Below, piece after piece: positions 7,273-32,000 of a DNA stretch of 32,000 bases. Every line of letters begins with the position of its first letter. The first letter of the stretch is position 1. Position numbers and translations under genes: made by a program. The notes below the pieces were generated by a model. The model made no database searches and was not told the origin of the DNA. It saw only the letters and a list, made by a program, of their open reading frames with translations. Source of the DNA: Moraxella nasovis (GTDB lineage: Bacteria > Pseudomonadota > Gammaproteobacteria > Pseudomonadales > Moraxellaceae); assembly GCF_022701215.1 (NCBI RefSeq), contig NZ_CP089976.1, positions 1 to 32,000 on the forward strand, read 5' to 3'.

Positions 7273-7281
7273 TAAGGTCAA

Positions 7282-7620: not shown

Positions 7621-7639
7621 ACTTTTGGAGGAGTTATCT

Positions 7640-8032: not shown

Positions 8033-8109
8033 CTATAAAATCAACCAAGTCTAAAGGTAAAATTTATTTTTAAAATACAATTGTATGGGCTTGGTTAACG
8101 ATAGGATAA

Positions 8110-10503
8110 CCACCATGCCCCACCCAAACCCCCCTTACCACAGCACTCACTACAGCTTTACTGTTAAGCTGCGGTGCTGCATGGGCGAATGGGTCTTTGA
8201 TTGTTGGTGGCACCACTCCAAACGCCAACCACCTGCAAGTCACCCATCAATCAGGCATCCAAGCCAATACATCAACACTCACCGTAGACGGCAAAGGTAT
8301 CTTTACAGGTGGTTATCTGCTTACCACAGATGAACAAGGCAACCAAACTAACTTTAAAGGTGGCATTATCACCCAAGATATGCAAAACCACCTTACCTAT
8401 GACGGCAGTGCAAATAGCATCGGCATCGCAGTCAGTGGCAAAGGCATCTCACCAACAAGCCTAGGCTATGGTATAATAGACCCCACTCATCAAACCAGCA
8501 CTACCTACTCTGCTGTAACAGGACAAGCAGGGCAGGCTCATGCCACCATCAAAGACAAAGACAGTCTTAATCAAACGCTACAAAACAGCTTTGATGAACA
8601 AGCATTTAATAGGGAGCTTGGGCTACAAACTCAAATCAGTACAGAGTTTGGTAGGCAAGCTCCGAGGGTGGTGGCACAGTTTAGTCAAAACCAAATCAAT
8701 AATATCCTAGAGCAACTTAATGACCCTAATTTAAGTCAAGATCAAGCAGAACAAATTCTTGATGAAGCCAAAAAATGGGATGAGGGTGGGATTTATAGTG
8801 TGGCACTGCATACTGCTATGGGTGCATTGGGTACAGGCTCTACTGAGGGAGCATTAGCAACAGGAACTGTAGCAACAATCGCTCCTAACATCCAAAAATT
8901 AGAAGATTATTTAACAAAACAACTGACCAAAGACAGCTCAAAAGAACAAGCAGACAAAGCCAGACAAACCGCCAAAGGCTTAATTTCTTTTGTCATGCTT
9001 GCCACAGGTCAAACAGCAGGACTTGACCCATCTAGTACCATGATGGCAACGAATGTGGAGATGAATAATCGGCAGTTGCATGGGCAAGAAAAGCAACTCG
9101 CCAGAGTTTTAGTTCAAAAAGCCAAACAAAAAGGGTTAAAAAGATCTGATGGTCAGTCTTATACACTTCAAGACATTGAAGATGCCTTACGCTGGGCAAA
9201 TAGCGGTAAGTATAAAGAGCGTTATGACAGTAATTCAAATGTAGCTATAAACAAATACAATGTGGCAAATGCCAACAAATTACTTTATGACAATGCCATA
9301 GGTGATGATTATAAAAAAGATGGGAAAAGATTGTGGAAAAGTTACTCTCAAGATGGTGTAACTGTCATGCGTCAGAACTTTAATAATATTAAAAAACCTG
9401 ACACAGAACTTATCAACCTTATCCAAAAACAAACCCCAAGTTATCAGTACACTTGGAACAAAGAACACATCAAAGGTTATCAAGCACCACCGAAAATCAC
9501 AACGCCCAGAAAAGTAGTTAAGGCACCAATTTATCCGCAGAGTGCTATGGATAGAAAAAATGCGACTATTAAGAGAAGTGGGGTTGATTTAAGTAGTTCT
9601 GCTAACATACAGGCAAAGTCTGATAAGATAATGAATGAAAAAGTCATGCCTGTTGTGCAAGTTGGAATTGGTGCTACCGAAGTGGTTGCAGGTAGTGCAA
9701 TGTGTACTACTGCATTAGGCTGTACAGCTGGCGTTGCCTTAATTACTAATGGTGTAGACAACGTAGCAACAGGTGGTTATAATTATGGCAAATCATTTAG
9801 CCAACAAACAAACTCAGTAGCACTTACCAAAGGGGTAGGGCTGTCTGAAAATACTGCTGCTAATGTTAAATTAGGGGTGGATTTGGCTTCGGGAGTTGGA
9901 GCGGGTAAAGCTGTTACTAAGACAGTTGGCAAAAGTACAGTAAGCAAAGTAGATGTTTCTAATAACCAAAGATTGCCTGATGTGTATGGTGATGGGGATT
10001 TGGGTAGTGTATTGGATGTGCCACCATATACTATAAGACAAGATAATAATTTTTATTCTGAAATTAATGAAAGAGGAAATCCTAAAGCTTATCTTGACAA
10101 AAATGGAAATCTCGTTCCAGCAAATGTAAATGGTAGGGGAACTATACAAACACATATTAGAGGTAGTAACCCTAGTGAAACACCTTATATATCTACAATT
10201 GATCCAAGCATTGTAGTTTCACCTAAAAAATATGCTAAACAACAAATTATAATTGATACTCAAAATTTACAAAAGGATATAGATAATGGTGTTGTTAAAG
10301 ATATTGAAATTGTTACCCCAAAGCAAATTATTTCTGAGTTGCAAGATAAAATAAATAAGGCACAAAATAGATATGATAAGAACCCATCTAATAAGAATCG
10401 CAATAGCCTAGATAGGGCAAAATCTGATTTAAAAAATGCGATGAGAGATGGAGAGTGTCTAATTAAAGGTATCGTCCCTTGTAATTATATTAAAAAAAAG
10501 TAA
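8110..10503 (+). CDS. cdiA: orphan CdiA C-terminal fragment (FHA-repeat end, pre-toxin region, VEMNN, about 477-aa C-terminal region with unassigned toxin domain)
   Basis: Frame 1 is open from 8110, with the first start-like codon a TTG at 8197. Reads FGRQAPRVVAQF and GIYSVALHTAMGALGTGSTEGALATG. The VENN variant NVEMNN is at 9052-9069. A Gly/Ala-rich hydrophobic segment follows (VVQVGIGATEVVAGSAMCTTALGCTAGVALITNG). The terminal domain reads ..GTIQTHIRGSNPSETPYISTIDPS..ECLIKGIVP. Confidence 0.75.
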   Translation, partial: PPCPTQTPLTTALTTALLLSCGAAWANGSLIVGGTTPNANHLQVTHQSGIQANTSTLTVDGKGIFTGGYLLTTDEQGNQTNFKGGIITQDMQNHLTYDGSANSIGIAVSGKGISPTSLGYGIIDPTHQTSTTYSAVTGQAGQAHATIKDKDSLNQTLQNSFDEQAFNRELGLQTQISTEFGRQAPRVVAQFSQNQINNILEQLNDPNLSQDQAEQILDEAKKWDEGGIYSVALHTAMGALGTGSTEGALATGTVATIAPNIQKLEDYLTKQLTKDSSKEQADKARQTAKGLISFVMLATGQTAGLDPSSTMMATNVEMNNRQLHGQEKQLARVLVQKAKQKGLKRSDGQSYTLQDIEDALRWANSGKYKERYDSNSNVAINKYNVANANKLLYDNAIGDDYKKDGKRLWKSYSQDGVTVMRQNFNNIKKPDTELINLIQKQTPSYQYTWNKEHIKGYQAPPKITTPRKVVKAPIYPQSAMDRKNATIKRSGVDLSSSANIQAKSDKIMNEKVMPVVQVGIGATEVVAGSAMCTTALGCTAGVALITNGVDNVATGGYNYGKSFSQQTNSVALTKGVGLSENTAANVKLGVDLASGVGAGKAVTKTVGKSTVSKVDVSNNQRLPDVYGDGDLGSVLDVPPYTIRQDNNFYSEINERGNPKAYLDKNGNLVPANVNGRGTIQTHIRGSNPSETPYISTIDPSIVVSPKKYAKQQIIIDTQNLQKDIDNGVVKDIEIVTPKQIISELQDKINKAQNRYDKNPSNKNRNSLDRAKSDLKNAMRDGECLIKGIVPCNYIKKK

Positions 10504-10513
10504 GGTTTTTTTT

Positions 10514-11143
10514 ATGAGCTCAAAAGAAATTGATGATTTATTATATGGCATACCAACCACAGTGGACTACACTGATCTGCCAGAGGAGTTAGATGAAGAG
10601 GACATTCCATCAGAAAGAATCGATGGTTTATTAAATATAATAAATAAAGAGATGGATATTTATTTATTATTCAGAGCATCTTTCCTTTTAAACTCTTGGG
10701 GTATTGATGAGGGTTTTAATAAAATGACGGAGCTTTTATTTAGTGATAAAATTTCTTATTTGATAATAAATAATTTAAAATCATTAGATGATACATATAA
10801 GCATGCTTTATCGTCTTATATTAGTTATTGGGCAGTAAATTCCGATCATGGAAATGGTGAAAAAGCGAGAAAAAAAATATATCAACCAATAAAGATTATT
10901 ATTGACAAGGCTAACATTCAGCCATTTCAAATAAATTCTTTATTTTGGGTGATTAAGAAAGAAGGATTTTATGAATATATTCCTTTATTAAAGCAACATT
11001 TAACAAAATTGTTAAGATACCACATGAATATGTATTGGGAAATACATGACTTATCAAAATTTTTATTGGATTTAGGATTTTCTGAATTTATTAATAAAAT
11101 TTTTTACCAAAATAATAAGGGGCTATCTGATTATGGTTTATAA
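10514..11143 (+). CDS. immunity-like protein for the preceding CdiA-CT (unassigned family)
   Basis: 209-aa very AT-rich ORF that starts 10 bp after the toxin stop. Acidic N-terminus. No recognised motif. Confidence 0.45.
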   Translation: MSSKEIDDLLYGIPTTVDYTDLPEELDEEDIPSERIDGLLNIINKEMDIYLLFRASFLLNSWGIDEGFNKMTELLFSDKISYLIINNLKSLDDTYKHALSSYISYWAVNSDHGNGEKARKKIYQPIKIIIDKANIQPFQINSLFWVIKKEGFYEYIPLLKQHLTKLLRYHMNMYWEIHDLSKFLLDLGFSEFINKIFYQNNKGLSDYGL

Positions 11144-11497: not shown

Positions 11498-11962
11498 TTT
11501 AAAAACCACCACCAAACAAAATCAGGCTTCATCAAAGGCAGTGGGGTAAGTATTACCATCGGTTCTCAAACAACCGACAACCAAAACAGCACCATTGGCA
11601 CCAATGATGGCAATGTGGTTTTGAGTGCAGGGGGTGATTATCGGCAAATAGGCAGTCATGTCAGTGCTTATATGGGGTCTGATACAGGCAAAGGGATAAA
11701 AGATAAAAAGCGTGGCAATGTCATCATTGATGCCAAAAATATTGATGTCATCAACAATATAACGACAAAAGACACCACCGAAAGCACTTACTTTAAACAA
11801 AAAGGGCTTACTGTCAGTGCTTCTAATAGCTTGGTAGATGGTGCCAAAGGCGTACAAAACATGGTAGAAGCTGGCAAGGAGGTGCAATCAGACAGGGCTC
11901 GTGCCATGGCCGCTCTAAGTGCTGTCAGCAAAGTCCTTTGCTTTTTTAAATTGTTTGCGTGA
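11498..11962 (+). pseudogene. cdiA: internal cdiA/fhaB-type fragment, truncated at both ends
   Basis: GFIKGSGVSITIGSQTTDNQNSTIGTNDGNVVLSAGGDYRQIGSHVSAY..GNVIIDAKNIDVINN..KQKGLTVSASNSLVDGAKG is typical FHA-2 repeat sequence. No start codon. Similarity is lost near 11935-11945, where - strand island sequence begins. Confidence 0.7.
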
Positions 11963-12121
11963 TTTAGCATGAGTTTTATTGATGGCTTGAATGGTTTGAG
12001 AATGTAAACCAAGTAATTCACCACTGCCTTTGGTGTAAATAGCTACTAACATCAACTAAGCTTACAGGCAGTAAACTGAAGCTCTCTGTGATGCTGGGTG
12101 GTGTGTTAGGCTTACACATTG

Positions 12122-12194: not shown

Positions 12195-12711
12195 TCAAGT
12201 GCTTGGGATGTCTTTAATGGCGTAACACAAGCGCTTGGGGTAGTTTGATAGCTCTGTGAAGCCGTATTTTTCATAAAAGCGTTGAGCGTTTTCATCTTTT
12301 GCGCCTCATCATTTCTGATAGTCGTTTGGCGGTTTGCATAGCATGTAAAAGTAAATCAGCACCCAATCCTTGCCCTTTGCATGCTTTATCAACTGCAAGC
12401 CTTCCAAGTAGTACGCACAGAATAGGGCTGTGGGGGCTTTGACGTTTCAATCTCTCACTATCATCGCGTTGTATGATATGGCACGCTGATAAGGTGTAAA
12501 AACCTGTCAGGCGGTTATTGTCTATTGCGCCATAAATAACCGTTTCATGACGTTTTAAAAGTTGGCTCGCCTGCTGTTTGATAAAACGATTTAATGGTAG
12601 GACACCGCAATCAAAAGTTGTCTTATCGTGGTTTCGGGTGAGCTTAGTTATCAACACGCACAAAACCCCTAATTGTGTACAATTATAAGAAATACGACAA
12701 ACAAAGTCCAA
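12195..12711 (-). pseudogene. TacT-like GNAT acetyltransferase toxin, degraded
   Basis: HDKTTFDCGVLPLNRFIKQQASQ..GFYTLSACHI..LGRLAVDKACKGQGLGADLL, then the frame is lost. The expected C-terminus GAKDENAQRFYEKYGFTELSNY lies in another frame and several residues appear deleted. Only a garbled DUF1778-like remnant is visible upstream (12720-12880). Confidence 0.6.
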
Positions 12712-14469: not shown

Positions 14470-14526
14470 GGCGGTGGGTGTGGCTTGCTTCTTATCTAAT
14501 CAACCGCCCAAGCCACAAGGAGTAAT
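14470..14526. repeat. 55-60-bp hairpin element, copy 1
   Basis: ggcggtgggtgtggcttgcttcTTATCTAATCAACCGCCCAAGCCACAAGGagtaatc, with stem gtggcttg/caagccac. It abuts the vapC stop. Confidence 0.8.
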
Positions 14527-14930
14527 CAGTTTTCTGTTCCAGATACCCAGTTCTCCACAGCCAAATCAAAACCTTCAAAATCTCGTTCGTTATTAGTAAC
14601 CAGCGTAAGATTTTGGCTGATAGCATGGCTGGCAATGAGCGTATCAAAACTAGCCTTGTGTTTTTTGCTTTGCATTATTTTACCAAAAATAACCGCCGCC
14701 TTGTCATCAAAGGGCAAAATAGTTATCATGCTTTGTAAGCGGTCAAAGATGGATTGTGATTGATGGATATTTAGTCCACGTTGCAACTCTGCCCATGTGA
14801 TTGCACTTATGGCGACTTCACCAACAAAACAACGGCTAAAATGCTCAACCACTGATGGCGGGGTATGTTTCATTAAATAAATGCATATGTTGGTGTCAAG
14901 CAAATACTTAGGTTGTATTACCATTGGCAC
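14526..14930 (-). CDS. vapC: PIN-domain toxin VapC
   Basis: KYLLDTNICIYLMK.. N-terminal PIN motif, later ..TLVTNNERDF. Overlaps the vapB stop. Confidence 0.85.
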   Translation of the reverse strand: MPMVIQPKYLLDTNICIYLMKHTPPSVVEHFSRCFVGEVAISAITWAELQRGLNIHQSQSIFDRLQSMITILPFDDKAAVIFGKIMQSKKHKASFDTLIASHAISQNLTLVTNNERDFEGFDLAVENWVSGTEN

Positions 14931-16675: not shown

Positions 16676-16972
16676 TTATGCAATCAAAATTTGCTTATCA
16701 TTGATGGTAGAGGTAACGGTCAATTTACCGCCTAACGCTTCAACGTATTTGGCAAGCGTGGATAAATGCACATCAACACCATTTTCAATTTTGCTGATAT
16801 TAGCTTGTGATACGCCCATTTTGTCCGCCAGCTCCTTTTGTGATAAATGGGCGGTTTGTCTAAGCTGTGATAATTCATAGCTTTGTTTTAGGGTGCGGGC
16901 TTTGGTGTGTATTTTGGCTTGCTCATCTTTGGGTAGGCTTGCCAAAAAGGTTTGATGATTGGTAAAGCTCAT
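16676..16972 (-). CDS. XRE-family helix-turn-helix protein (antitoxin-like)
   Basis: LRQTAHLSQKELADKMGVSQANISKIENG is a canonical XRE HTH. Confidence 0.75.
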   Translation of the reverse strand: MSFTNHQTFLASLPKDEQAKIHTKARTLKQSYELSQLRQTAHLSQKELADKMGVSQANISKIENGVDVHLSTLAKYVEALGGKLTVTSTINDKQILIA

Positions 16973-17019
16973 TTTGTCAGCCCTTATTATCTTATGCCAT
17001 GACTTAACGCTCTGCGATT

Positions 17020-17283
17020 TTAGGCAAACGCCAAGCCCACTTCTTCCCCTAAATTAGCGTTAATATTTACTAATGCGTCAAGGCTAAATTTGCTAATCTT
17101 GCCCTGTAATAGGTCATTTAGGCGTGGTTGTGTGATACCGCATTCTTTTGCGATTTGGGCTTGTGTGCCGTCCATTTCGCTAATTAGCTTTTGAATATGG
17201 CTCATCAGCTGGGCCCTTAACTTTAAATTTGCACTTTGGCCGGGTGTGTCGCTTAGTGCGTCAAATACGCTGTTAAATTTCAT
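17020..17283 (-). CDS. XRE-family HTH antitoxin (HigA-like partner of the upstream Gp49-type toxin)
   Basis: GTQAQIAKECGITQPRLNDLLQGKISKFSLDALV. It starts 6 bp after the toxin stop. Confidence 0.7.
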   Translation of the reverse strand: MKFNSVFDALSDTPGQSANLKLRAQLMSHIQKLISEMDGTQAQIAKECGITQPRLNDLLQGKISKFSLDALVNINANLGEEVGLAFA

Positions 17284-17938: not shown

Positions 17939-18331
17939 TTATTCTAACCAGTTTTGCCATTTTAAGCCGTCAACTCGGCTAAACTCTTTGACATTATGCG
18001 TAATCAAGGTTAGATTTTTAGATAACGCTTGTCCTGCTATTAGCATGTCATACGCCCCGATCACTTGCCCCTGTCTTTGTAGGTCTGCTCGCACCTTGCC
18101 AGCACATAGAGCATCTTTATCATCAAAAGGCAATCTTACAAAGGGTAATTTGTCAATTTTTGCCAAATTTTCACGCTGTTTTTGACTATGATATGCCCCA
18201 TAATACAGCTCGAACAGCACAATATCCGACAACGCAAAATCGCTCACTTTACGTTGTTTTAGTCGTGCGATAAGCACAGGATTTTGCTTTTGTAGGGCAA
18301 TGATGATGTTGGTGTCAAGCAGGTATTTCAT
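17939..18331 (-). CDS. vapC: PIN-domain toxin VapC (second copy)
   Basis: MKYLLDTNIIIALQK.., ..LTLITHNVKEFSRV. 4-bp overlap with vapB. Confidence 0.85.
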   Translation of the reverse strand: MKYLLDTNIIIALQKQNPVLIARLKQRKVSDFALSDIVLFELYYGAYHSQKQRENLAKIDKLPFVRLPFDDKDALCAGKVRADLQRQGQVIGAYDMLIAGQALSKNLTLITHNVKEFSRVDGLKWQNWLE

Positions 18332-18573
18332 GCAAAATCTCGCTTGCTGATGGGGTCGTCTTTTAGCATTGCGACTGCTTGCTCCATGTCATCATCAAAG
18401 GACGAAACATCATCCAGCCAGCCCCAATCATCTATGATGGGCGTGATGATGAGTTGGTTGCCGTGTTTTTTTAACTGTACTTTATCGCCATCAAAGCGAA
18501 ATTCTTTGGGTAAGCGAATGGCTTGTGAATTGCCACTATAAAAAAGGCGTGCGGTAATCATATTTTTTCTCAT
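18328..18573 (-). CDS. vapB: AbrB/SpoVT-type antitoxin VapB (second copy)
   Basis: ARLFYSGNSQAIRLPKEFRF. The start may be the internal ATG at 18561. Confidence 0.8.
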   Translation of the reverse strand: MRKNMITARLFYSGNSQAIRLPKEFRFDGDKVQLKKHGNQLIITPIIDDWGWLDDVSSFDDDMEQAVAMLKDDPISKRDFA

Positions 18574-22318: not shown

Positions 22319-22416
22319 GTATTATAACACCCACAAAAAACAATATCAATAGATTTTATTTAATAATTTTGATATGATAGTATTAAAAATATTATTAGGT
22401 GATATTGTATTATTGT

Positions 22417-23064
22417 ATGGCTGATAAAAACAATATAAATAAAATAGATAAACTGGGTAAACATCAAATTGTTGGATATATCAGAGTATCAAGCTTAGAT
22501 CAAAATACAGAGCGTCAGCTAGATGGTGTTACCCTTGATAGAGTATTTATTGACAAGATAACAGGATCAACTAAAAACCGTCCACAGCTAAATGCGATGC
22601 TTGATTATGTGCGATTTGGTGATACCGTTATTGTGCATAGTCTTGATAGATTAGCACGCAATCTTGAAGATTTGTTAGACATCATCAAACAGCTCAATGA
22701 TAAGGGTGTGATTTTTCAGTCCTTAAAAGAGAATGTAAAATTTGATGGTTCAAGCCCTAGTGCTATGGATAAACTAATATTGCATATTTTTGGAGCCATT
22801 GCTGAGTTTAATCGATCACTCATACGAGAAGCTCAAAAAGAGGGAATAGCCAAAGCCAAGCAGCGTGGTGCGTACAAAGGAAGAAAACCTGCTTTAAACA
22901 AAACGCAGGTAAAAGAGCTTAAAGACATCATTGAATCTAAAAACAACTCTATTGAAAACTACAAAGAACTCACTTTACCAAAAATTGCTGATCAATTTGG
23001 TGTTTCACTACCGACTATCAATCGCTACATCAAAAAGATTAAAGAAAAAAAAACGAAGGGATAA
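22417..23064 (+). CDS. serine recombinase (resolvase/invertase family)
   Basis: VGYIRVSSLDQNTERQLDG catalytic-Ser motif, ..DRLARN.., and a C-terminal HTH IADQFGVSLPTINRYIKK. Confidence 0.9.
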   Translation: MADKNNINKIDKLGKHQIVGYIRVSSLDQNTERQLDGVTLDRVFIDKITGSTKNRPQLNAMLDYVRFGDTVIVHSLDRLARNLEDLLDIIKQLNDKGVIFQSLKENVKFDGSSPSAMDKLILHIFGAIAEFNRSLIREAQKEGIAKAKQRGAYKGRKPALNKTQVKELKDIIESKNNSIENYKELTLPKIADQFGVSLPTINRYIKKIKEKKTKG

Positions 23065-23066
23065 AA

Positions 23067-23912
23067 ATGAAAAAACCCATTGCTTACAACCCAGAGAAAT
23101 TGTTATACAAGCCCATTTTCACCAAAGATGAGTTGGCATATTTAGAGGCTTTAAACAGCGTATCAAAAAGTGAATATTTGCTATCACCTAGAAATATTCA
23201 ATCCTTTTCTATCAGCTTTGCACATACCTCAGCTGTGCTAGAAGGTAACACCTATAGTGCTGTTGAAGCTGAGCTGCTTTTAACATTAGGTCAAACAGGC
23301 GCACATAGACAGCTAAGTGAAGCACTCATGCTAAAAACAATGCAAAGCTCTTTTAACTATATTGTAGAAGAATCTCAACATAGTAAAACAGATGCACGTC
23401 GCCCACTATCATATATAGTTAAAAATGCACATGCAATGGTGTCTGAAGGTATACTAAATCAACAATATTGCGGTACAGCACGCAATGAGCCAGTGCTTAT
23501 CACAGCAACAGATTATATCCCCTCTGACATTCCTCAGCAGCTTGAAGATGGTTTACAAATAATTGAAACAGAATATGATAGTATTAAAAATACCTTTGAA
23601 AAAGCAGTTTATATTCATCAAAACCTATCATATTTGCAATATTTCTATGATCATAACAAACGCACAGCACGCAATATGTGTGCATACACACTACTAGCTG
23701 ACAACAAGATGCCGGTTATGTTTACTGAACGCAGCACTGAAGAATACGCACGCGCTGTCATATCTTATTATGAAAGTGAACCAGCAGATTATAGTGCGTT
23801 CAAAGACTATTTTATTGCATCTTATGAGCGTGTTTGTTCACGAATGAATGCCTTTGCTGTTGAGCAGGCTCATGCACTAGTATTTTCCACCAATCAAGAC
23901 ATCAATCTCTAG
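23067..23912 (+). CDS. Fic-fold protein with degenerate active-site motif
   Basis: Fic_N-like HTSAVLEGNTYSAVEAELLL. In place of HPFxDGNGRxxR it reads QYFYDHNKRTAR, so the catalytic His position is Gln and both Gly are replaced. Confidence 0.65.
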   Translation: MKKPIAYNPEKLLYKPIFTKDELAYLEALNSVSKSEYLLSPRNIQSFSISFAHTSAVLEGNTYSAVEAELLLTLGQTGAHRQLSEALMLKTMQSSFNYIVEESQHSKTDARRPLSYIVKNAHAMVSEGILNQQYCGTARNEPVLITATDYIPSDIPQQLEDGLQIIETEYDSIKNTFEKAVYIHQNLSYLQYFYDHNKRTARNMCAYTLLADNKMPVMFTERSTEEYARAVISYYESEPADYSAFKDYFIASYERVCSRMNAFAVEQAHALVFSTNQDINL

Positions 23913-23943: not shown

Positions 23944-24625
23944 GTGTTTATGGGTAAAAAGTTATTTGATGATATTGATGAGTGGTTCAACGGCAACCGT
24001 AAAACTACATCAAAGTCAGCTGGTAGTGGTGGCAGTGTTACGTTACCAAAAATTAGAAAGCCCACACCAAAACCACAAGCTATCAAAAACATCATTAACG
24101 GTGCCAAGTCTGCCAAGAAAGGTGTAGCCAATAAGGGTGGCAAGAAATTGCCACAGGTGGTTGTTAAAATTAGTGGTAGCAGCAAGGGTGCTGAATAAGG
24201 CACAAAGTCACCTTAATTATACGGGACGCAAAGGCAAAGTTGAGCTAGAAGATGAGCAGGGAAATAAATATTTAGGTGATGAGCAAAAAGAGTTAATGAA
24301 AAGCTGGGAAGCGGCAGGATTTCATGATAAGCATGATACTGGCAACAAGAGAGAGGCCTTTCATTTTGTATTTTCAATGCCCGAAGGCACTGACCCAAAG
24401 GGATTAAAAGATGCTGTACGCAATCTAGTGCAAGAAGAATTCACAGGACATAAATATTTTATGGCGCAGCACCTAGACACAGATAAACCACACTGCCACG
24501 TGTTGATCTGTGCCACAGATGATCGTGGTGCACGTCTAAATCCACGAAAGCAAGATTTACACAATTACCGTGTAGCATTTGTCAACAAGCTAGCTGAGCA
24601 AGGTATTTCAGCCTTTGATACTTGA
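23944..24625 (+). pseudogene. relaxase (MobA/VirD2-type) N-terminal fragment, frameshifted and 3'-truncated
   Basis: VVVKISGSSKGA.. then a frame shift to KAQSHLNYTGRKGKVELEDEQG.., EAFHFVFSMPEG, and the His triad HLDTDKPHCHVLI. It ends after ..NKLAEQGISA, only about 225 aa. Confidence 0.7.
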
Positions 24626-24876
24626 GCTGCTGCCGCTGCTTCTTGTTTAATATTTAAGGCGATACCTTCTTGGATTAAAGCAGTATTATCTCTGATTGCT
24701 GTTGTCAAGGCATTTTGTGACTTAGCGACTCTTTGCCCAATCGTGGAAGATAGTTTTGTACCTTCTTGTATTGAAGCTGTAGCAACAGCATGTGGCGATA
24801 AGCCGTAAGCGGCATGACCCTGCTGTACGAAAGACAACGCGATTGTCACCGCTAAGAGTTTAAAAGACTTGTTCAT
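24565..24876 (-). CDS. signal-peptide protein, apparently 3'-truncated at the relaxase junction
   Basis: MNKSFKLLAVTIALSFVQQGHA signal. ..ALIQEGIALNIKQEAAAAAQVSKA resembles residues about 50-77 of the 25607-26980 product. The last about 15 codons are antisense to the relaxase. Confidence 0.45.
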   Translation of the reverse strand: MNKSFKLLAVTIALSFVQQGHAAYGLSPHAVATASIQEGTKLSSTIGQRVAKSQNALTTAIRDNTALIQEGIALNIKQEAAAAAQVSKAEIPCSASLLTNATR

Positions 24877-24963
24877 GATACCATCTATTAAGTTTGTCTT
24901 AATTATTAATTTAGTATATCATAAAAAGCACAGTAGTGAATATCTTGTCGAAAAACAAGGGTT

Positions 24964-24997
24964 AAAAAAAACTGTCCACGCATGGACAGTTTTTTGT
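24964..24997 (-). terminator. bidirectional rho-independent terminator
   Basis: A7-actgtcca-cgca-tggacagt-T5, with a perfect 8-bp stem at 24971-24990. Confidence 0.7.
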
Positions 24998-25015
24998 TTT
25001 TAGGAGGGGAGTGCG

Positions 25016-25570
25016 TCACCTTAACTCATCTGAATCAGCGTCCAATTCTAATACTACCGGGTCTTGCTCATCACCCCAATCACCAACACCTACCAAATTT
25101 TCAATATCGCCACCAACTGTTATATATTTTGGCGTGTAAGTGACTGTGGTACCTTTCTTAACTTGTATACTTGTGGTTTTAATTTCTTTGTTTTTGTTAT
25201 CAACAAGGACAATGCCTGTCACCTCACTTTCTTCATCACTAACAGATACATTACTACCTGCAGTGACAACGACATATTTACCCATAAACCTAACATCATG
25301 CTTGGTTTTGGCAGCACTTGCTAAAATAGTGTCTGCAACATTTTTCTTGCAGTAGTTGATACCCAGTGGGTATTGGCAAGTTGTTATATGGTAACCTTTA
25401 TGTTTGCCAGATTTATAATCAAAGCTGTCAATAAGCATGATTCTATTGGTTACACTGGCAAGAGTCTTGGCTCTGTCTGCCATAATCTTGTTTTTTTCTG
25501 CTACAGACAAATTGGCGAATGTGGCAGTTGAAATCATCATTGAAATTGCAAAAGCGATAATTTTTTGCAT
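25016..25570 (-). CDS. secreted 184-aa protein (unassigned; possible periplasmic partner of the upstream lysozyme-like protein)
   Basis: Signal MQKIIAFAISMMISTATFA. Followed by a terminator. Confidence 0.5.
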   Translation of the reverse strand: MQKIIAFAISMMISTATFANLSVAEKNKIMADRAKTLASVTNRIMLIDSFDYKSGKHKGYHITTCQYPLGINYCKKNVADTILASAAKTKHDVRFMGKYVVVTAGSNVSVSDEESEVTGIVLVDNKNKEIKTTSIQVKKGTTVTYTPKYITVGGDIENLVGVGDWGDEQDPVVLELDADSDELR

Positions 25571-25606
25571 AATTAAATCCTTGATTAAAAAAATGACAAA
25601 GTGGTT

Positions 25607-26980
25607 TTATTTTCCGCTTTGTTGTTTGTTGACTTGATCTATTTTATCGACAATAGCCCAAACTTTCATGGTTACATCGCATGCAGCACTGTTAGCACCA
25701 CCATCATAAAATCCACGAATGGTTTTTCCATTACAAGTAGCACCTGGAACACCAAGCGGTGCCCACTCTTTAGCCAATTTTAATTTAGCTGCCTTTTTAG
25801 ATAAACCCCGGTTCTTTAATAACCCGCCAATGCGATAGTCAACCAAATAACCTGCCATCTGCTTTTGTACTTCAGGGGTGAATTTAACACTATTAGAAAG
25901 ACCTAAACTTGTTTGAGCGTTTTTAAATGTGCTTGCTATTATTTGGTATTTACCTGCCGCAAAAAGACGGCTACAATCGTTCACGCTTTTAGGAGAATAC
26001 TGACCTATTTCTCGATAAATCTGTCTCATTTGACCAAGTGTCATATTGGTCAAATTAAAAACGCCACCGCTAGGTCGACTACAAGCTATTCTCTTACCTA
26101 TTGTACCATTGTTACTGGCATTCCAACCTGCTGCGCCACCAGAACTTTCTCCTTCTGCCACCACCGATATCAGTTGTTCCCTTAAAGCCTTAATATCATT
26201 TGGCAAATTAGAAAGATCCGCATGACCACTAGAACCACCTACCGCTGTCACACCACTGTCAGGGTGTGCAATCCTACCGTCCCAAGCTTCGGATAATGCC
26301 CCTAACTGCTCAACCTTGATGGGTTCGATGCCAGTAGGGGGTGCATCCCAGGGTGTGCCTGACTCTATTTGCTCATAAAAAGAGTTTTGAATCATCGAAC
26401 CTAATGCATGATATTGACCTTGGCTATTAGCAAGTTCTTTACAAGTCACATTAGTACAAAATGAATCATCGGATTTAGCAGGATCAATGATATTTCTTAC
26501 ATAACTATAGCCTGCATTAATCTGCTCTTCATTTAGCGTAAGATTGTTAGCGATGTTTCCGTAATCAGTGTTTATGCCACTTTTTGTGCCAGGTTTTTGC
26601 AAGCAAACACCTGCTGCCACCTCACTAATGTCACAATAATTGGTATAATGGTCTTTCGCTCGTAAAGCACGCTTTACACCATCCATTTTATAATATGCTC
26701 TTTTTATGCCGCTTTCAACTGCTGATTGTAAGGTCATATTATGCAAACTACGCTTACTAATTTCTTGTGCAGCTAATGCGGTTTGTTTGACGTTAATATC
26801 TAAAGCAGCACCTACCTGATCTGCCTGTTGTATTGCTGCAATAGCTGCTGGATTTTTTTTAAATTCAGCAATAGAAGCTGCATTCGTCACTAACTCAGCA
26901 TAGGACGAGAAGGGGAGGGCAAGCCCACCCCCACCAATGATGACAGACAATATCAACGGAAGCTTCTTTACACTAAACAT
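25607..26980 (-). CDS. secreted Cys-rich protein with C-terminal lambda-lysozyme-like (lytic transglycosylase type) domain
   Basis: Signal-like N-terminus MFSVKKLPLILSVIIGGGGLALPFSSYA. The C-terminal VAEGESSGG ... RLFAAGKYQIIASTFKNAQTSLGLSNSVKFTPEVQKQMAGYL parallels phage lambda R (..SEGT.. / GAGRYQLL..LGL..FSP..QD) as recalled. Confidence 0.6.
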   Translation of the reverse strand: MFSVKKLPLILSVIIGGGGLALPFSSYAELVTNAASIAEFKKNPAAIAAIQQADQVGAALDINVKQTALAAQEISKRSLHNMTLQSAVESGIKRAYYKMDGVKRALRAKDHYTNYCDISEVAAGVCLQKPGTKSGINTDYGNIANNLTLNEEQINAGYSYVRNIIDPAKSDDSFCTNVTCKELANSQGQYHALGSMIQNSFYEQIESGTPWDAPPTGIEPIKVEQLGALSEAWDGRIAHPDSGVTAVGGSSGHADLSNLPNDIKALREQLISVVAEGESSGGAAGWNASNNGTIGKRIACSRPSGGVFNLTNMTLGQMRQIYREIGQYSPKSVNDCSRLFAAGKYQIIASTFKNAQTSLGLSNSVKFTPEVQKQMAGYLVDYRIGGLLKNRGLSKKAAKLKLAKEWAPLGVPGATCNGKTIRGFYDGGANSAACDVTMKVWAIVDKIDQVNKQQSGK

Positions 26981-26992
26981 GATTACCTCAGC

Positions 26993-28462
26993 TTATTGAT
27001 TGCCAACATAATTGGTCTGACCAGAAAATCTGTTGTAATAAGAAGTGCTGCCATTAGAAGTGCTGCCATTAGATTGGTTGGTTGATGGTGTCGGCTTAAC
27101 CTCTATCTTTGTATTGTTGTTTACCACGTTACTGTTAACTGCAGTTTTAGCTTCATTATTTTGACTTTGAGCTGTTGTACCACTTACGATAGGCGTGGTT
27201 TTTCTATCCATATCTGTTGTCGTCGTATTTGGCTGTGGTATGTTCTTGGCTATGTTGCCAACTGTTGTATGAGGGGTAATATTACTTATTTCACTACCGC
27301 CCTTAGACAACAAGTCTGCACGTCTAAGCTGTTCTTCATACGTTTTTTTAGCTGCGTTATGTTGTCTCCAAGCTTCATTAATGGCGTTGTATTGACCCTG
27401 GCTGATTGCCGTACATTGCTTGTAATCTAGCGTACATTGCTGATACTGAACTCCTTGATTAGAGTTTGTACCTACCACCCTAGCAACCGAGGTAGGAGCA
27501 GCTGGAATTTTAGCCCTTATCTCATCCGCCATCTGTTTTGTTACTTGTGATTGTAGTTGTTGGTTGGTAGTCGAACCATCTTCAAGAACAAAATCAACAA
27601 TAGGGATGTCACCGACAGCTTCTTCTGCACTATCTAATAATTGTCTTGCTTTTTCATTAGCTCGACTATTAGCTTCATGTAGTTTATTTTCAGCATTAGA
27701 TAACTGTTTTTCCAAACGACCTTGCAAAGATTCAGAATATATATTAATTTGATTATGTATACTAGCGCCCACAAGAGAGTCTAAGTTATTAATCTTGTTA
27801 GCACCTTCATTCCAACGTCTGCTTAATTCAACCACAGGTAAAAGAGCGTCTCTTGTTGCTTGGTTGGCAATATCACAAACCCTATCTTTTAGATGTTTTT
27901 TCATATTCTGCAAGGCTTTGTTAGCAGCTTTTCTTGTGATACTTGCCACATCACCCCATGATGTTGGGATTCTAGGCAGGGCAATGGTTAGATCCATAAT
28001 CTCTTGGGCGGCAGTAAAGCACCCTTTTGTTGATTCATTCTTGCCAATATTATCAAAAATAGTGGCGGCGACACCACTGGTAGCATCGACCATCTCTATT
28101 CTTCTTTCAATCACAGATGCCTGTTCTTTATCCAATTCAGCAGCACACCCTTTGGAGCCTTCTACCACGTCATGTATTTCATCACCTTTTGCAGGTGTGG
28201 AGGTGTGGTTATGCCCACTGGTAACCGTGGTTGCTGGTTTAGAGGTTACAGAAATACCTGTGCCTCCCGCTACCTTGGCAATGGAATTATTTTTGGCTTG
28301 CTCAGCTGTCGCATTAGAAACATGATTGTGCCCATTATCCGCCATCGAAACAGTGGATAGGATGGAAAGTGCTGCCACAGAGAGTGCAAGTTTGGTCTGT
28401 TTAAATTTACGTATAAAAGATAAACCTAAGTTGATGTTGATGGCGTTTTGTTCAACCTGCAT
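26993..28462 (-). CDS. secreted coiled-coil protein with Asn/Ser/Thr-rich C-terminus (unassigned)
   Basis: ATG at 28462. Signal KQTKLALSVAALSILSTVSMA. In-frame 15-bp tandem duplication at 27041-27070 (NGSTS twice). Confidence 0.55.
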   Translation of the reverse strand: MQVEQNAININLGLSFIRKFKQTKLALSVAALSILSTVSMADNGHNHVSNATAEQAKNNSIAKVAGGTGISVTSKPATTVTSGHNHTSTPAKGDEIHDVVEGSKGCAAELDKEQASVIERRIEMVDATSGVAATIFDNIGKNESTKGCFTAAQEIMDLTIALPRIPTSWGDVASITRKAANKALQNMKKHLKDRVCDIANQATRDALLPVVELSRRWNEGANKINNLDSLVGASIHNQINIYSESLQGRLEKQLSNAENKLHEANSRANEKARQLLDSAEEAVGDIPIVDFVLEDGSTTNQQLQSQVTKQMADEIRAKIPAAPTSVARVVGTNSNQGVQYQQCTLDYKQCTAISQGQYNAINEAWRQHNAAKKTYEEQLRRADLLSKGGSEISNITPHTTVGNIAKNIPQPNTTTTDMDRKTTPIVSGTTAQSQNNEAKTAVNSNVVNNNTKIEVKPTPSTNQSNGSTSNGSTSYYNRFSGQTNYVGNQ

Positions 28463-28604
28463 CGCAAGTACTAAATAAGGGTAGGGGTTTGGTCTCAAAG
28501 GTAAGTTTTCACCCGCACTACCAATTTTTACCCGCTATTGATTTATTTTTGCATTCGGCATCTGAAACGGACAAGTACCAAATATGAAAAACTTAAAATA
28601 TTAT

Positions 28605-28622
28605 TAAGTTAAATTTAACTTA
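28605..28622. promoter_or_regulatory. 18-bp perfect palindrome in an intergenic region
   Basis: taagttaaatttaactta, about 140 bp upstream of the 28462 start. Confidence 0.35.
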
Positions 28623-28672
28623 TTATAACCCAATTCAATCAAATGGCAAGCCACAACGCCAAACAGTTGCGT

Positions 28673-29218
28673 CTAGAATTCTTGGATCAGTCTAATTGGA
28701 ATGATATCCACTTGACTTTGTAGATTTGGATTTGGAGATGCCATCAAAACAGACATAAGATGCACAAAAAATCCCCTTAAGAATAAGTGATCTTGAAAAG
28801 TTTGAGCCCTTTGACAAAAATCACAAAATACCCAAAGTTGATAAACAGGATCTAATGAAGACATCAACATAATAAATTCTTCATACCACTGGCTTGAATT
28901 TTTATCGCCAATATTTTTAACCTGTTCTAACCGCAAAGTTAGTGAAACCTTTTCTGCACACGCCTGCTGTTCTTCAGCACAAGCATTAAATCGCTCTATA
29001 TCCATATATTCAGATAATCTTATGTGTATATTTTTAGATTTTAGAGCCCAGCTTTTAACAGCATCAATATCTATCTGACCGTTATACTTAACCCTAGTCA
29101 TTGGATAAGACTGTAATTGTGTCACAATCAAATCAGCAAAGTGTAAAAGGGTGGAGTTAAACACTTTTTCAATTTTCTTACCTTGATTTTGATAACTTTC
29201 GTTTTTTTTCAAATTCAT
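28673..29218 (-). CDS. hypothetical cytoplasmic protein
   Basis: 181-aa ORF. Its start overlaps the upstream stop by 4 bp. Confidence 0.45.
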   Translation of the reverse strand: MNLKKNESYQNQGKKIEKVFNSTLLHFADLIVTQLQSYPMTRVKYNGQIDIDAVKSWALKSKNIHIRLSEYMDIERFNACAEEQQACAEKVSLTLRLEQVKNIGDKNSSQWYEEFIMLMSSLDPVYQLWVFCDFCQRAQTFQDHLFLRGFFVHLMSVLMASPNPNLQSQVDIIPIRLIQEF

Positions 29219-29901
29219 CTTTCATGGCTTAGCTTGTTATTCACGGTAGGGGTGTGCGTAAGGGAGTTTTTCTCTTTTTGTACTTCACTATTGGTAAAAC
29301 CATATTCACTTAAAGAAGTTGGGATATCTTCTTTTTCCATTTCTTGTTGTTGTGCTTTTAATTGTCTTTGCTGTTCTTGTATAACATAAGACAAGGGGCT
29401 TTTAGATAAACTCTCCATTCTTCCTACTCTTTTTAACGCATCTAATGTACAAACAGGGTTTGGCGAGCCACTTTTATTTAAATTTTCTAAAGCTTCTTTT
29501 ATATATGTGGTATCAGTAATTTGAGTCAAAGGGAATAACTGCAATACAGTAGTAGGATTTTCTCTTGCCATGTCCAACATAACAACGTCATCAACAGCCA
29601 AGCCTAACATTTTAGCTTGACCCGAAGCAGAGCCCACCACGCCTGCAAAACCAAATTTATTACTCAACTTATTCTTGCGTTCTATATCAATAGCCAGTGA
29701 TCTATCAAGACGACTTTGTGGATCCAAAAACAATGCATCATCATAATTAGATAACTGACCAATACCTTTTTCATAAACCATGTAGCTATTTATAAATCTT
29801 GCAGTCATAGAGCTGGCATAAGGGGGTAGTATACCTACATCCTTTACATCATTAGTATCATCTGCTATTTTATTTTTTTTAAAAAACTGATCAACATTCA
29901 T
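29215..29901 (-). CDS. hypothetical protein
   Basis: 228-aa ORF, coupled to the downstream gene. No motif recognised. Confidence 0.45.
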   Translation of the reverse strand: MNVDQFFKKNKIADDTNDVKDVGILPPYASSMTARFINSYMVYEKGIGQLSNYDDALFLDPQSRLDRSLAIDIERKNKLSNKFGFAGVVGSASGQAKMLGLAVDDVVMLDMARENPTTVLQLFPLTQITDTTYIKEALENLNKSGSPNPVCTLDALKRVGRMESLSKSPLSYVIQEQQRQLKAQQQEMEKEDIPTSLSEYGFTNSEVQKEKNSLTHTPTVNNKLSHER

Positions 29902-29933
29902 TTATTTTCACCCAAAACCAAACATTCAAGCCA

Positions 29934-31619
29934 TCACATATCCATGCTAGGACCATCATCATTTTTCCGACCTGTGACTTTTGCCAATATTTTTGATAAG
30001 AAACTAGCAAGAGAGGAGCCACCTATCTTATCAAGCAAAGACGATTTTTCTTCAGATTTCACCTTAAGATCGTTTATACCATCCTCTAAGGACCCTTTTC
30101 TTTTGTTTAATTTATCAAGTTCATCTTGAGTGACAAGCTCATTAGCTGACCCCTCCAACACGTTTTCAGCGATGTTTGATCTCTCATCAATTTCAGCAGC
30201 AACAGCATTGATCATACCGTTTTCATTAACACTATCTACCTCCACTGCATGTTTTGGCTTATATGAAAATTGGTATAAAGCATCTACATCTTCAATATTA
30301 CAATTATGGACAGTAACTCTATTGACTCTTGAATGCTCGCCAATATCTGCACCAAACAATTTGTGAGTTACCTCATCTTTAACCATATCTTGGCTTTGCG
30401 ATACATCGACAGACTCCCTAATATTAGCCAGACCCTCAACATCTTGATTTTTACTGATATCTTGGTAGGCTTTGGTGCTAAGTTTTGCACTCAAATTCTC
30501 TTTTTTAGATGATTTTTGACCTAACTTTGAGGCAGCTTTTTTTACCAAATGCCCTACACCATAAAGCAAATAAACACCGAGTGGGAGCACTTCTTTTTTC
30601 TCTTTATGCTCACCTTGCATGATGGGTCTTGTTTTGGGGGCAGGGGACATTAAATACACAGAACCTTCACCCTGCCTCTTATTATTCAACTTCTCATACA
30701 ATTCATTTTTTCGCTCAGATATATGGTCAGTAAGAGGATTGTTTGCAACACCCAAATCTTTATCAGCAATAGCATCTCTTTCATCTCCCTGTAAGGACTG
30801 CTCTGCCTTATTGTCATATTCCCTCATATTGGCTTGTTGCTCAATATTTTTTTCTTTATTAAAGGTCTTGCTAAAGGACATGGGGACCTCAAGCATATTG
30901 CGTCCTTCCCCCTGTCTGATTGCCTCCTCCATCACGCCTGCAAGAGAATCATCTTCAAACCCATATCCGTAATCTTCCATGAAATGAGCTAGCCGAATCC
31001 CACTCTCTTGATTATCCCTTATATACACTTCAAGATTTTTATAAAACTTATCCGCTTCTTGTTTATCTTCATTTTGATCAGCAAAACCAAACCCTCGAAA
31101 ATGATTAAAGTCTTCCCATTTAATCCCTTTTTCACTAATGTGTAATTTACCATTTGAATCACATATGATAAAAGAGTTGATATGGTTTGTGTGTGAAGCC
31201 TCAAGCCAATGCTTGCCATGCTGTTTAAAATCATTTATCAAAGGATTCTTTGCCACTTCTCTTTTAAACTCATCGCGCAAATCATCTAAAAACGTTAACT
31301 TTTGTTCAGGATCCTCTATACTCCTATTAGATTCATACAGATTATGCTTTAAGATTGTATTTGTGATTTTTTTGACATCTTCATGCTTTACATAACCATT
31401 ATCTTGAACGTATTGATAATCAATACCCTGAATACCTTCGCCTTTTTTGCCTAAGGCAATCCAATTAGCAAATTCTATATTTTTTTGAATAAGGTCATAC
31501 TTATCTTGATATTTATCAAGATACTCTTGCTTTTTCCTATCTTTTATATCAAATAACAAATCACCAAAAATATCGGCACGCTCATCACCGTTTTTAAACT
31601 CATTTAAACTGTCTACCAT
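29934..31619 (-). CDS. large acidic hypothetical protein with one central hydrophobic segment
   Basis: ATG at 31619 preceded by gggggg. VLPLGVYLLYGVGHLV is the only hydrophobic stretch. No motif recognised. Confidence 0.5.
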   Translation of the reverse strand: MVDSLNEFKNGDERADIFGDLLFDIKDRKKQEYLDKYQDKYDLIQKNIEFANWIALGKKGEGIQGIDYQYVQDNGYVKHEDVKKITNTILKHNLYESNRSIEDPEQKLTFLDDLRDEFKREVAKNPLINDFKQHGKHWLEASHTNHINSFIICDSNGKLHISEKGIKWEDFNHFRGFGFADQNEDKQEADKFYKNLEVYIRDNQESGIRLAHFMEDYGYGFEDDSLAGVMEEAIRQGEGRNMLEVPMSFSKTFNKEKNIEQQANMREYDNKAEQSLQGDERDAIADKDLGVANNPLTDHISERKNELYEKLNNKRQGEGSVYLMSPAPKTRPIMQGEHKEKKEVLPLGVYLLYGVGHLVKKAASKLGQKSSKKENLSAKLSTKAYQDISKNQDVEGLANIRESVDVSQSQDMVKDEVTHKLFGADIGEHSRVNRVTVHNCNIEDVDALYQFSYKPKHAVEVDSVNENGMINAVAAEIDERSNIAENVLEGSANELVTQDELDKLNKRKGSLEDGINDLKVKSEEKSSLLDKIGGSSLASFLSKILAKVTGRKNDDGPSMDM

Positions 31620-31651
31620 ATACCCCCCAATCAATCAATTTTTCAAAAAGA

Positions 31652-32000
31652 CTAAAAACCCACACCCATATCCAAACTTGTCTCATGATGGGGCTTTTTT
31701 GAGATGGCTAAGTCCTCCCCCAACTTCATACCCAAATCTACATTGTCTACAGTTAAATCACCAAAAGACATACCAGACAAGTCTTCTGTACCTATATAAA
31801 AAAGGGATAAATCTTGCTCTTTATAAGAAAGGGCTAAATCTTGCTCTTTTTTTCTTTCGTACTCAATAATTTCAATATCAAAGCTCAAAAATGGCTTTGT
31901 ACCCAGTGATTCTTGAGGATTTTTAACAAATTGCTCAAATTGTTCAAAATTATTAGCATTTTGTTTATCACTCTTAGGGTCTGGTAGTACCGCTCTTAAA
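31652..32000 (-). CDS. hypothetical protein, frame open to the window edge (5' end may lie outside)
   Basis: There is no stop between 31888 and 32000 in this frame. It contains an in-frame near-duplicate of about 26 bp (KEQDLALSY / KEQDLSLFY, about 31802-31853). Confidence 0.4.
   Translation of the reverse strand, partial: LRAVLPDPKSDKQNANNFEQFEQFVKNPQESLGTKPFLSFDIEIIEYERKKEQDLALSYKEQDLSLFYIGTEDLSGMSFGDLTVDNVDLGMKLGEDLAISKKPHHETSLDMGVGF

Follow-up and report, generated by a model that had tools for sequence, protein, structure and literature searches.

What is the gene set that fills the minus strand at the far end of this stretch, positions 1 to 32,000 of contig NZ_CP089976.1 of Moraxella nasovis (all 32,000 nucleotides are called the window here)? 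Eight consecutive open reading frames (ORFs) lie there, from p103 at 24565 up to a partial ORF that runs on past 32000, and the initial annotation read them as a coherent, envelope-directed, transfer-related gene set on a mobile background. Homology and synteny uphold that description. They do not uphold the further proposal that the genes, said to lack any hallmark of a type IV secretion system (T4SS), make up an undescribed module and a candidate new system for transfer, adhesion, or antagonism. We consider it likely that the cluster is instead the promoter-proximal part of the transfer-gene block of a conjugative element of the mating-pair-formation class MPF_I (type IVB, IncI/Dot-Icm-like), cut by rearrangement. 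Judged from homology of the predicted products and from synteny, four of the eight genes (p103, p457, p501, and p184) belong to the MPF_I/type IVB class; homology to a well-characterized system, which the initial annotation had named as the finding that would speak against novelty, was thus found. The locus is a decayed, divergent member of this known class, of the type carried on large plasmids of Moraxellaceae, and not a new system. The element appears to have been integrated in, or left behind in, the 2-Mb replicon.

The assignment begins with gene order. In Moraxella sp. ZJ142 (locus L003), a DNA_pol_A-like protein of 903 residues is followed by proteins of 628, 250, 538, 500, and 202 residues, by a TraW-like protein of 389 residues, by a protein of 440 residues, and by more genes. 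p501 matches the 538-residue protein (E 4e-59), p457 the 500-residue protein (E 6e-95), and p103 residues 17-102 of the 389-residue TraW-like protein (phmmer E 1.5e-22). Because these matches fall in order, the window holds the same gene arrangement, ending about 100 codons into a traW-like gene. Synteny of p501, p457, p103, and in part p184 extends from ZJ142 to Moraxella osloensis pNP7-1 (L009), Acinetobacter baumannii pR32_1 (L008), Pseudomonas syringae pSP13-1, and Moraxella bovis, and the order p501, p457 N-terminal domain, TraW-like protein agrees with that of ZJ142, pNP7-1, and pR32_1. The initial annotation had suggested looking for conservation of the neighborhood across plasmids, and the block order is indeed kept in Moraxella and Acinetobacter plasmids.

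It is the company of this block that points to the class of the element. The block of pR32_1, which is typed MPF_I by MOB-suite, encodes a 348-residue protein (weakly p501-like), a 253-residue protein (like the N-terminal domain of p457), and TraW-like proteins of 375 and 377 residues, with DotA/TraY 10 kb downstream. In pNP7-1, DotA/TraY lies 8 kb downstream of the same block (L009), and elsewhere on the plasmid (L007) are DotI/IcmL, DotH/IcmK, DotG/IcmE, and a coupling protein; DotA/TraY or core-complex genes were seen near the homologous block in L007, L008, L009, and L011. A tblastn search with the ZJ142 TraW-like protein returned matches on 192 plasmids of PLSDB, 157 of them from Acinetobacter, including pAB3 (CP012005) and pD4 (KT779035). 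Plasmid pAB3 conjugates via a Dot/Icm-like type IVB system (PMC10746170), and the plasmid family of pD4 and pAB3 has been described as MPF_I and has an annotated traW gene (PMC10117892).

The last gene of the cluster marks where the block is broken. In L001, L003, L008, and L009 the two tandem TraW-like paralogues both match p103 at their N-termini, and p103 consists of the signal peptide and opening ~100 residues of a protein whose usual length is 375-441 residues. Homology to the TraW-like protein by tblastn stops at window position 24604, and the final 13 codons of p103 are antisense to a relaxase gene on the opposite strand, whose ORF (162 residues, nuclease domain only) ends at 24625. From these two end points it follows that two cut genes meet tail-to-tail, at about 24604-24625. 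p103 had been annotated as a secreted protein; its signal peptide stands, whereas the ORF is a gene fragment and not a small secreted protein. The idea of a complete novel module fails at the same point, as the last gene is this truncated traW-like fragment and the downstream genes of its relatives, among them two TraW-like paralogues and DotA/TraY, are missing from the window. A full-length TraW/IcmX protein (about 375-440 residues, including the C-terminal domain) is likewise absent, p103 providing ~100 residues and p457 the N-terminal and middle parts minus 52 residues.

How does the TraW-like family connect to a characterized transfer protein? A profile of 16 TraW-like proteins aligned with residues 162-274 of TraW of plasmid R64 (hhalign probability 93.9%, E 1.6e-7) and gave no match among 29 further R64 proteins of the Tra, Trb, Nik, Sog, and Exc groups (all E >= 0.077). 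The C-terminal part of R64 TraW also matches P0008 and P0037 directly (phmmer E 4e-7), and P0008 and the 389-residue ZJ142 protein carry the precomputed label PF28212, "TraW-like". In sequence searches, the PDB yielded no meaningful match to the p457 profile, to a TraW-like protein, to the profile of the TraW-like family, or to R64 TraW. With IcmX itself recovered by neither sequence nor fold search, the last step to IcmX rests on the literature: a review groups R64 TraW with VirB5 and IcmX in one row (PMC12624023), and DotA-IcmX forms a central pentameric channel (PMC12501162, PMC12857230).

The N-terminal domain of p457 is, by sequence comparison, a third and shorter paralogue of this TraW/IcmX (VirB5-equivalent) family. 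It matches the ZJ142 TraW-like protein directly (phmmer E 1.6e-5), and in iterated searches the domain (about residues 15-210) matches all TraW-like paralogues with E from 1e-14 to 1e-58. The motif H-x2-YCD-x-SE-x3-G-x-C ... NTDY is common to the p457 N-terminal domain and the TraW-like paralogues. For p457, a large protein search gave nine relatives at 36-51% identity and placed the window's own copy on a contig of 2.03 Mb, tblastn gave only distant, partial matches on M. osloensis, P. syringae, and other plasmids, and a scan of genome contigs with the p457 alignment returned the Moraxella sp. ZJ142 locus alone. Compared with its five closest homologues, p457 has an exact 52-residue in-frame deletion after residue 95, and the deleted segment is a conserved G-x-G...C stretch present in all five.

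Several observations weigh against an MPF_I origin of the cluster, and they concern the machine, the family link, and the block itself. The window contains no VirB4-like ATPase TraU/DotO, no DotB/TraJ, and no coupling protein, as judged by tblastn with the ORFs of related loci (including the R64 tra and pNP7-1 dot regions) and by Pfam and NCBIfam, and it contains no DotA/TraY or core-complex gene (DotC/D/H/G = TraI/H/N/O). Class membership therefore rests on accessory genes and synteny. Even in pAB3 the accessory genes of the block lie outside the 11-12 Dot/Icm-like genes tested so far, and no characterized T4SS component could be linked to p501, to p184, or to any of the four cytoplasmic proteins. 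Compared directly with R64 TraW, the p457 family aligns over the same region and motif, with a weak score (E 0.06); the link between p457 and R64 TraW is for this reason transitive, through the match of p457 to the TraW-like family. Foldseek searches of the PDB with the models of p457 and of P0023, a relative with the same N-terminal domain, whose N-terminal domains are of moderate confidence, returned neither an IcmX chain (PDB 9NGY) nor a VirB5 chain. Helical bundles are hard targets for Foldseek. Finally, in three metagenomic loci (L004-L006) the counterpart of the p501-p457-p184 unit is followed by methyltransferase genes and not by traW-like genes, and the unit may for this reason be able to work alone.

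Granted an MPF_I origin, is anything here still at work? The cluster might be functionless debris, eight ORFs left from a dead integrated plasmid or integrative and conjugative element (ICE) and neither expressed nor selected, which we regard as possible though somewhat unlikely. The truncation of the traW-like gene and its fusion to a truncated relaxase gene are what such decay would leave, as are the 52 conserved residues lost from p457 and the lack of any core T4SS gene in the window. The surroundings are rich in toxin-antitoxin pairs and orphan toxin cassettes and also hold a TnpB fragment and a resolvase gene, and the sequences of the three proteins looked up (p561, the 561-residue form of p566, together with p457 and p228) are not on record elsewhere. 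However, seven long ORFs, about 7 kb, are free of frameshifts and stops, the deletion in p457 is exactly in frame, and a strong promoter-like site and a terminator-like hairpin remain in the p501-p184 block as plausible signals for the start and stop of transcription. Under the MPF_I reading, the intact genes either are ones that decay has not yet reached or work for a T4SS whose genes lie in another part of the genome. As seen in the window, with the downstream half of the block missing, the locus cannot form a secretion channel.

The C-terminal part of p457 is a domain of another type. In the AlphaFold model an all-helical N-terminal domain (per-residue confidence, pLDDT, 56-87) is joined by a disordered linker to a C-terminal domain that is mostly above 90, and this second domain is, by its model, of lysozyme-like fold. 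Foldseek against BFVD gave 24 matches at E<=1e-3 (best E 2.3e-10), which include a phage lysin domain, gp5 baseplate-hub proteins, and a signal-arrest-release (SAR) endolysin transglycosylase (E 2e-10 to 1e-5). Matches in the PDB are weak (E >= 0.04) and mostly lytic transglycosylases, the best being a cyanophage baseplate protein. No Pfam family matches the domain even at E <= 10; the homologue P0007 has a sub-threshold match to Pfam SLT (PF01464; 19.1 bits against a cut-off of 21.3, E 0.001). The domain is widespread, with 4576 library hits, and occurs in fusions with M23 and M15 peptidases. The putative catalytic residue is Glu278 of a G-E-S motif, which does not vary across six full-length homologues. 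On this evidence, the domain probably cleaves peptidoglycan.

The partner of the N-terminal domain varies among homologues. In P0009 and P0010 the lysozyme-like domain is replaced by a region with only sub-threshold SLT matches. In P0023, a library protein of 440 residues, the p457-type N-terminal domain is joined to a C-terminal SGNH/GDSL-hydrolase fold, for which Foldseek on the model returned TesA-type esterases and the catalytic domain of Staphylococcus aureus OatA (E 4e-3 to 2e-2, probability 1.0). Because P0023 bears this fold in place of the lysozyme-like domain, the p457-type N-terminal domain appears to be a carrier for differing cell-wall-active enzymes. TraW-like segments also occur in peptidases of the related plasmids. 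M23 peptidase proteins at L008 34653-36488, L001 14818-15945, and L002 13663-15699 each contain a 70-100-residue segment homologous to the C-terminal part of TraW-like proteins, and those of pNP7-1 and pR32_1 additionally carry a lysozyme-like or SLT-like domain. The wall-degrading enzymes of such systems are thus assembled by the shuffling of TraW-like modules with enzyme modules.

The small protein p184 accompanies the lysozyme-like domain. A homologue is present in L004 (E 6e-10), two stand behind the M23-lysozyme-like fusion of pNP7-1 (L002 15744-16277 and 16291-16857), and the counterpart in ZJ142 is the 202-residue protein, in the same position and with a motif in common. A p184-type neighbor directly follows the gene for the lysozyme-like domain in four of four loci and is missing in three of three loci that lack the domain, a small sample; the latter are the short TraW-like genes of L001, L008, and L009. 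Because a family member follows each lysozyme-like-domain gene and none follows the short versions, we infer that p184 is a physical partner of the domain, as an inhibitor or a chaperone.

Taken together, the carrier domain and its partner allow a broader proposal, which we put forward tentatively and think rather unlikely as a whole. In this branch of type IVB systems the TraW-like module, the VirB5/IcmX equivalent, would have been triplicated, with one copy becoming a carrier of interchangeable wall enzymes (a phage-tail-lysin-like muramidase, an SLT-like region, or an SGNH esterase) and with the lysozyme-like versions matched to a periplasmic partner with a Cys loop; the product would be either a tip lysin or an effector-immunity pair. 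If this is correct, a peptidoglycan-cutting head would sit on the central channel or tip of the machine, much as on a phage tail tip, and act on the wall of donor or recipient. In its alternative form, the pair would be a T4SS-linked bacteriolytic effector and its immunity protein.

An outright antagonism module, with p457 as a polymorphic exported wall toxin aimed at neighboring bacteria, perhaps delivered by the type IVB machine, and p184 as its periplasmic immunity protein, is in our view doubtful. It would account for the single type of N-terminal domain with three kinds of C-terminal domain (lysozyme-like in p457, the sub-threshold SLT region in P0009 and P0010, SGNH/GDSL in P0023), and for a small two-cysteine protein with a signal peptide after each lysozyme-like domain and none where the domain is missing. 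Orphan cassettes for polymorphic toxins and immunity proteins are also present at 5-11 kb of the window. However, the N-domain family is always found among conjugation genes, beside full-length TraW-like paralogues and DotA/TraY, and VirB1-type lytic transglycosylases and like peptidoglycan hydrolases are standard parts of a T4SS. Moreover, because p457 has a Sec signal peptide, it enters the periplasm of its own producer, which a machine-associated hydrolase fits equally well. A prophage lysis or tail-lysin cassette is hardly credible: the best structural matches of the p457 C-terminal domain are phage lysins, baseplate-hub lysozymes, and a SAR endolysin, with a cyanophage baseplate protein first in the PDB, but the resemblance is confined to that ~200-residue domain, all gene context is conjugative, and a prophage origin was rejected because no phage structural gene was found, with no capsid, tail, terminase, or holin gene recognized in the window or in the related loci examined.

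If the cluster is part of an MPF_I transfer block, what would its genes do? In intact relatives the order begins with a large DNA-processing protein, followed by one to three fast-evolving cytoplasmic proteins and a secreted protein of the p501 type. Next comes a short TraW-like paralogue, which may or may not have a cell-wall enzyme domain, then two full-length TraW-like paralogues, several more genes, and DotA/TraY last. The window holds this order until ~100 codons into the first of the full-length traW-like genes, where the truncated relaxase gene is joined tail-to-tail. From their family relations, the TraW-family proteins are predicted to be VirB5/IcmX equivalents that sit beside DotA/TraY in the central channel of the machine. 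p457 would be the machine's own peptidoglycan-cutting enzyme, a helical TraW-like module bearing a lysozyme-like domain; p184 is predicted to reach the same compartment and to bind the enzyme as inhibitor or chaperone, and p501 may be a further periplasmic or surface accessory.

p501 has homologues in several of the related loci. The conserved part of the protein is a Cys-containing helical core; low-complexity sequence flanks it, the protein has a Ser/Thr-rich linker and a low-complexity tail, and homologues stand in the same position in L003, L004, and pNP7-1 (L009 17294-18724), with a weaker one of 348 residues in pR32_1 (L008 18170-19216). A clear family member is located immediately upstream of DotA/TraY in an M. 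bovis plasmid. No relation was found between the p501 family and any R64 transfer protein or the TraW-like family. Searches of large databases with p501, as single sequence and as profile, returned p501 itself and one partial match, low-complexity words having probably swamped the candidates. From its homologues and their positions, p501 is best described as a predicted accessory protein of Moraxellaceae type IVB transfer regions.

The genes at the upstream end (p566, p228, p181, and the partial ORF) are lineage-specific orphans in syntenic positions. p566 is weakly collinear with the 628-residue protein at the same position in ZJ142 (23% over 212 residues, pairwise E 0.001); an iterated search found no further relative, and a search of genome contigs was also empty. 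A match of p566 to LAMB1 (23.3 bits against a cut-off of 26) was judged to be a coiled-coil artifact. The sole match of p228 is marginal and collinear, to the 250-residue protein at the same position in ZJ142 (pairwise E 0.006), and p181 has no homologue in any fetched locus. The tail of the partial ORF, ...TSLDMGVGF, resembles the ...TSLDYG and ...TSMSFG tails of the 903- and 913-residue proteins of L003 and L004, a resemblance that is not statistically significant and serves as a hint only. Those two proteins, both DNA_pol_A-like (L003 2888-5599 and L004 3342-6083), stand first in the homologous blocks; for Acinetobacter, Pseudomonas, and R64 the same slot is filled by Strawberry-notch, LPD1, or LPD7 "polyvalent" proteins. 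The motif TS[LM][DS]xG is common to the C-terminal tails of the L003 and L004 proteins and of the partial ORF, and might be a type IVB export signal.

All eight ORFs were found where the initial annotation had placed them (Table 1), and none of the eight proteins matches a Pfam or NCBIfam family above threshold. Four have a signal peptide, as described: in each, an A-x-A-type site comes after a hydrophobic N-terminal stretch (Kyte-Doolittle mean over 12 residues, 2.1-2.2). The remaining four were described as non-secreted and are so, having no hydrophobic N-terminus and an isoelectric point (pI) of 4.5-6.4. The tight spacing that had been reported holds at five junctions (a 4-bp overlap and gaps of 12, 17-32, 32, and 36 bp) but not at two. 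The p181-p501 gap measures 174-210 bp and contains the region's best promoter-like site, a call that is a consensus match only, the total of such sites in the region being not above that in shuffled sequence. The p184-p103 gap is 139 bp and contains the terminator-like hairpin. Given these two wide gaps with their candidate signals, the cluster is probably more than one transcription unit.

Table 1. Positions in the window of the minus-strand cluster, of two parts of p457, and of adjoining signals and the relaxase gene
Feature	Position	Strand	Description
Partial upstream ORF	31652..32000 and beyond	-	>115 residues, pI 4.5, 3' end only
p566	29934..31634	-	561 residues if the start is the ATG at 31619; acidic (pI 5.3), non-secreted
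p228	29215..29901	-	Acidic, non-secreted orphan
p181	28673..29218	-	Non-secreted orphan; 4-bp overlap with p228
Promoter-like site TTGCCA-16-TATAAT	28622..28649	-	11 of 12 consensus positions
p501	26993..28498	-	489 residues if the start is the ATG at 28462; secreted
p457	25607..26980	-	Signal peptide; TraW-like N-terminal domain and lysozyme-like C-terminal domain
p457, N-terminal part, about residues 1-210	26351..26980	-	Signal peptide and helical TraW-like domain
p457, C-terminal domain, about residues 250-457	25607..26233	-	Lysozyme-like, probable peptidoglycan-cleaving
p184	25016..25570	-	Small periplasmic protein, two invariant cysteines
Terminator-like palindromic hairpin, bidirectional	24966..24995		13-bp stem between A run and T run
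p103	24565..24876	-	Truncated traW-like gene
Relaxase gene, MobA/VirD2-type, 3'-truncated	24137..24625	+	Pfam PF03432, E 2e-15

The rest of the window adds no further transfer gene, as judged by a search with the ORFs of all related loci, those of the R64 tra region and of the dot regions of pNP7-1 among them. By megablast, neither the cluster region nor the remainder of the window has a plasmid match. The window contains no tRNA gene and no Rfam family, and no integration site is therefore identified. A serine resolvase gene (PF00239, E 2e-37) and, 3 bp after it, a Fic-domain gene (PF02661; together 22399-23912, plus strand) lie a short way upstream of the relaxase fragment. Further away the window reads as a typical mobile-element graveyard of dense toxin-antitoxin-like pairs. 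PIN-domain (VapC-type) toxin genes lie at 14526-14930 and 17939-18573 on the minus strand, one with a small antitoxin-like ORF upstream, and a pair of small helix-turn-helix-type ORFs lies at 16676-17283 (minus strand). A 34-codon fragment at 11936-12037 (minus strand) has 91% protein identity to the TnpB gene of pNP7-1, the window's closest match to any named organism and a hint of a Moraxella-like host. A GNAT acetyltransferase gene is present at 12292-12711.

On the plus strand, 5061-11143 holds an array of orphan polymorphic-toxin/immunity cassettes, similar to the final part of a CdiA or Rhs-type locus. It includes an ankyrin-repeat protein (5859-6386), an Endonuclea_NS_2 toxin tip (7282-7620) followed by a YezG-like immunity gene (7625-8032), and a 768-residue ORF (8197-10503) with a VENN-like "VEMNN" motif followed by a 209-residue ORF. 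The window opens with an ORF resembling an outer-membrane beta-barrel (1-903, plus strand, weak Pfam matches), which overlaps by 4 bp the gene for a C39 peptidase-domain protein (900-1532, plus strand; PF03412, E 8e-24) that has a signal peptide and no attached ABC transporter.

The locus itself carries little weight; its main use is as a sign of the past entry of an MPF_I element into this genome. The block at large is of some importance. It is found on at least 192 PLSDB plasmids, including the pAB3/pD4 family that carries resistance genes in Acinetobacter, and nearly all of its genes are annotated as hypothetical. Three TraW/IcmX-like paralogues, a lytic enzyme, and its partner offer targets for studying how the channel is built and how the wall is crossed. 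What is modestly new is the fusion of TraW-like carrier domains to interchangeable cell-wall enzymes, each then with a small periplasmic partner.

The cluster can be compared with several known systems. The MPF_I plasmids of the pAB3, pD4/pD46-4, and pA297-3 family, seen here in pR32_1, have p501-like, short TraW-like, and two full-length TraW-like genes in the same order. However, identity is about 30% or less and over parts only, and the Acinetobacter short TraW-like protein has neither a lysozyme-like domain nor a p184-like partner, a lytic domain being carried on a separate M23 protein; the copy in the window, for its part, is truncated and without all core genes. TraW of R64 (IncI1), the IcmX counterpart, shares with the TraW-like family a signal peptide, a gene position near traY/dotA, a C-terminal region, and a Cys-containing core, H-x2-[FY]C ... 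E ... G-x-C ... G-x-D-S/T (residues 162-274). R64 has one traW gene, whereas the systems with the present block have three tandem paralogues, of which the window retains only the N-terminus in p103 and only the N-terminal and middle parts in p457. The C-terminal domain of p457 recalls VirB1-type lytic transglycosylases and T4 gp5-type tail lysins in its lysozyme-like fold and in the catalytic-type Glu of an E-S motif, and like them it is predicted to be attached to an envelope-spanning machine, where it would open the wall locally. It differs from them in falling below the Pfam SLT threshold, in its fusion to a TraW-like module, and in having its own small periplasmic partner. With the polymorphic toxin/immunity pairs of Xanthomonas, X-Tfe and X-Tfi, the system shares a conserved targeting module, swappable wall enzymes, and an adjacent small exported protein. 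Unlike X-Tfe, which have an XVIPCD-type C-terminal signal, p457 carries its module at the N-terminus, behind a Sec signal, and draws it from a structural T4SS family.

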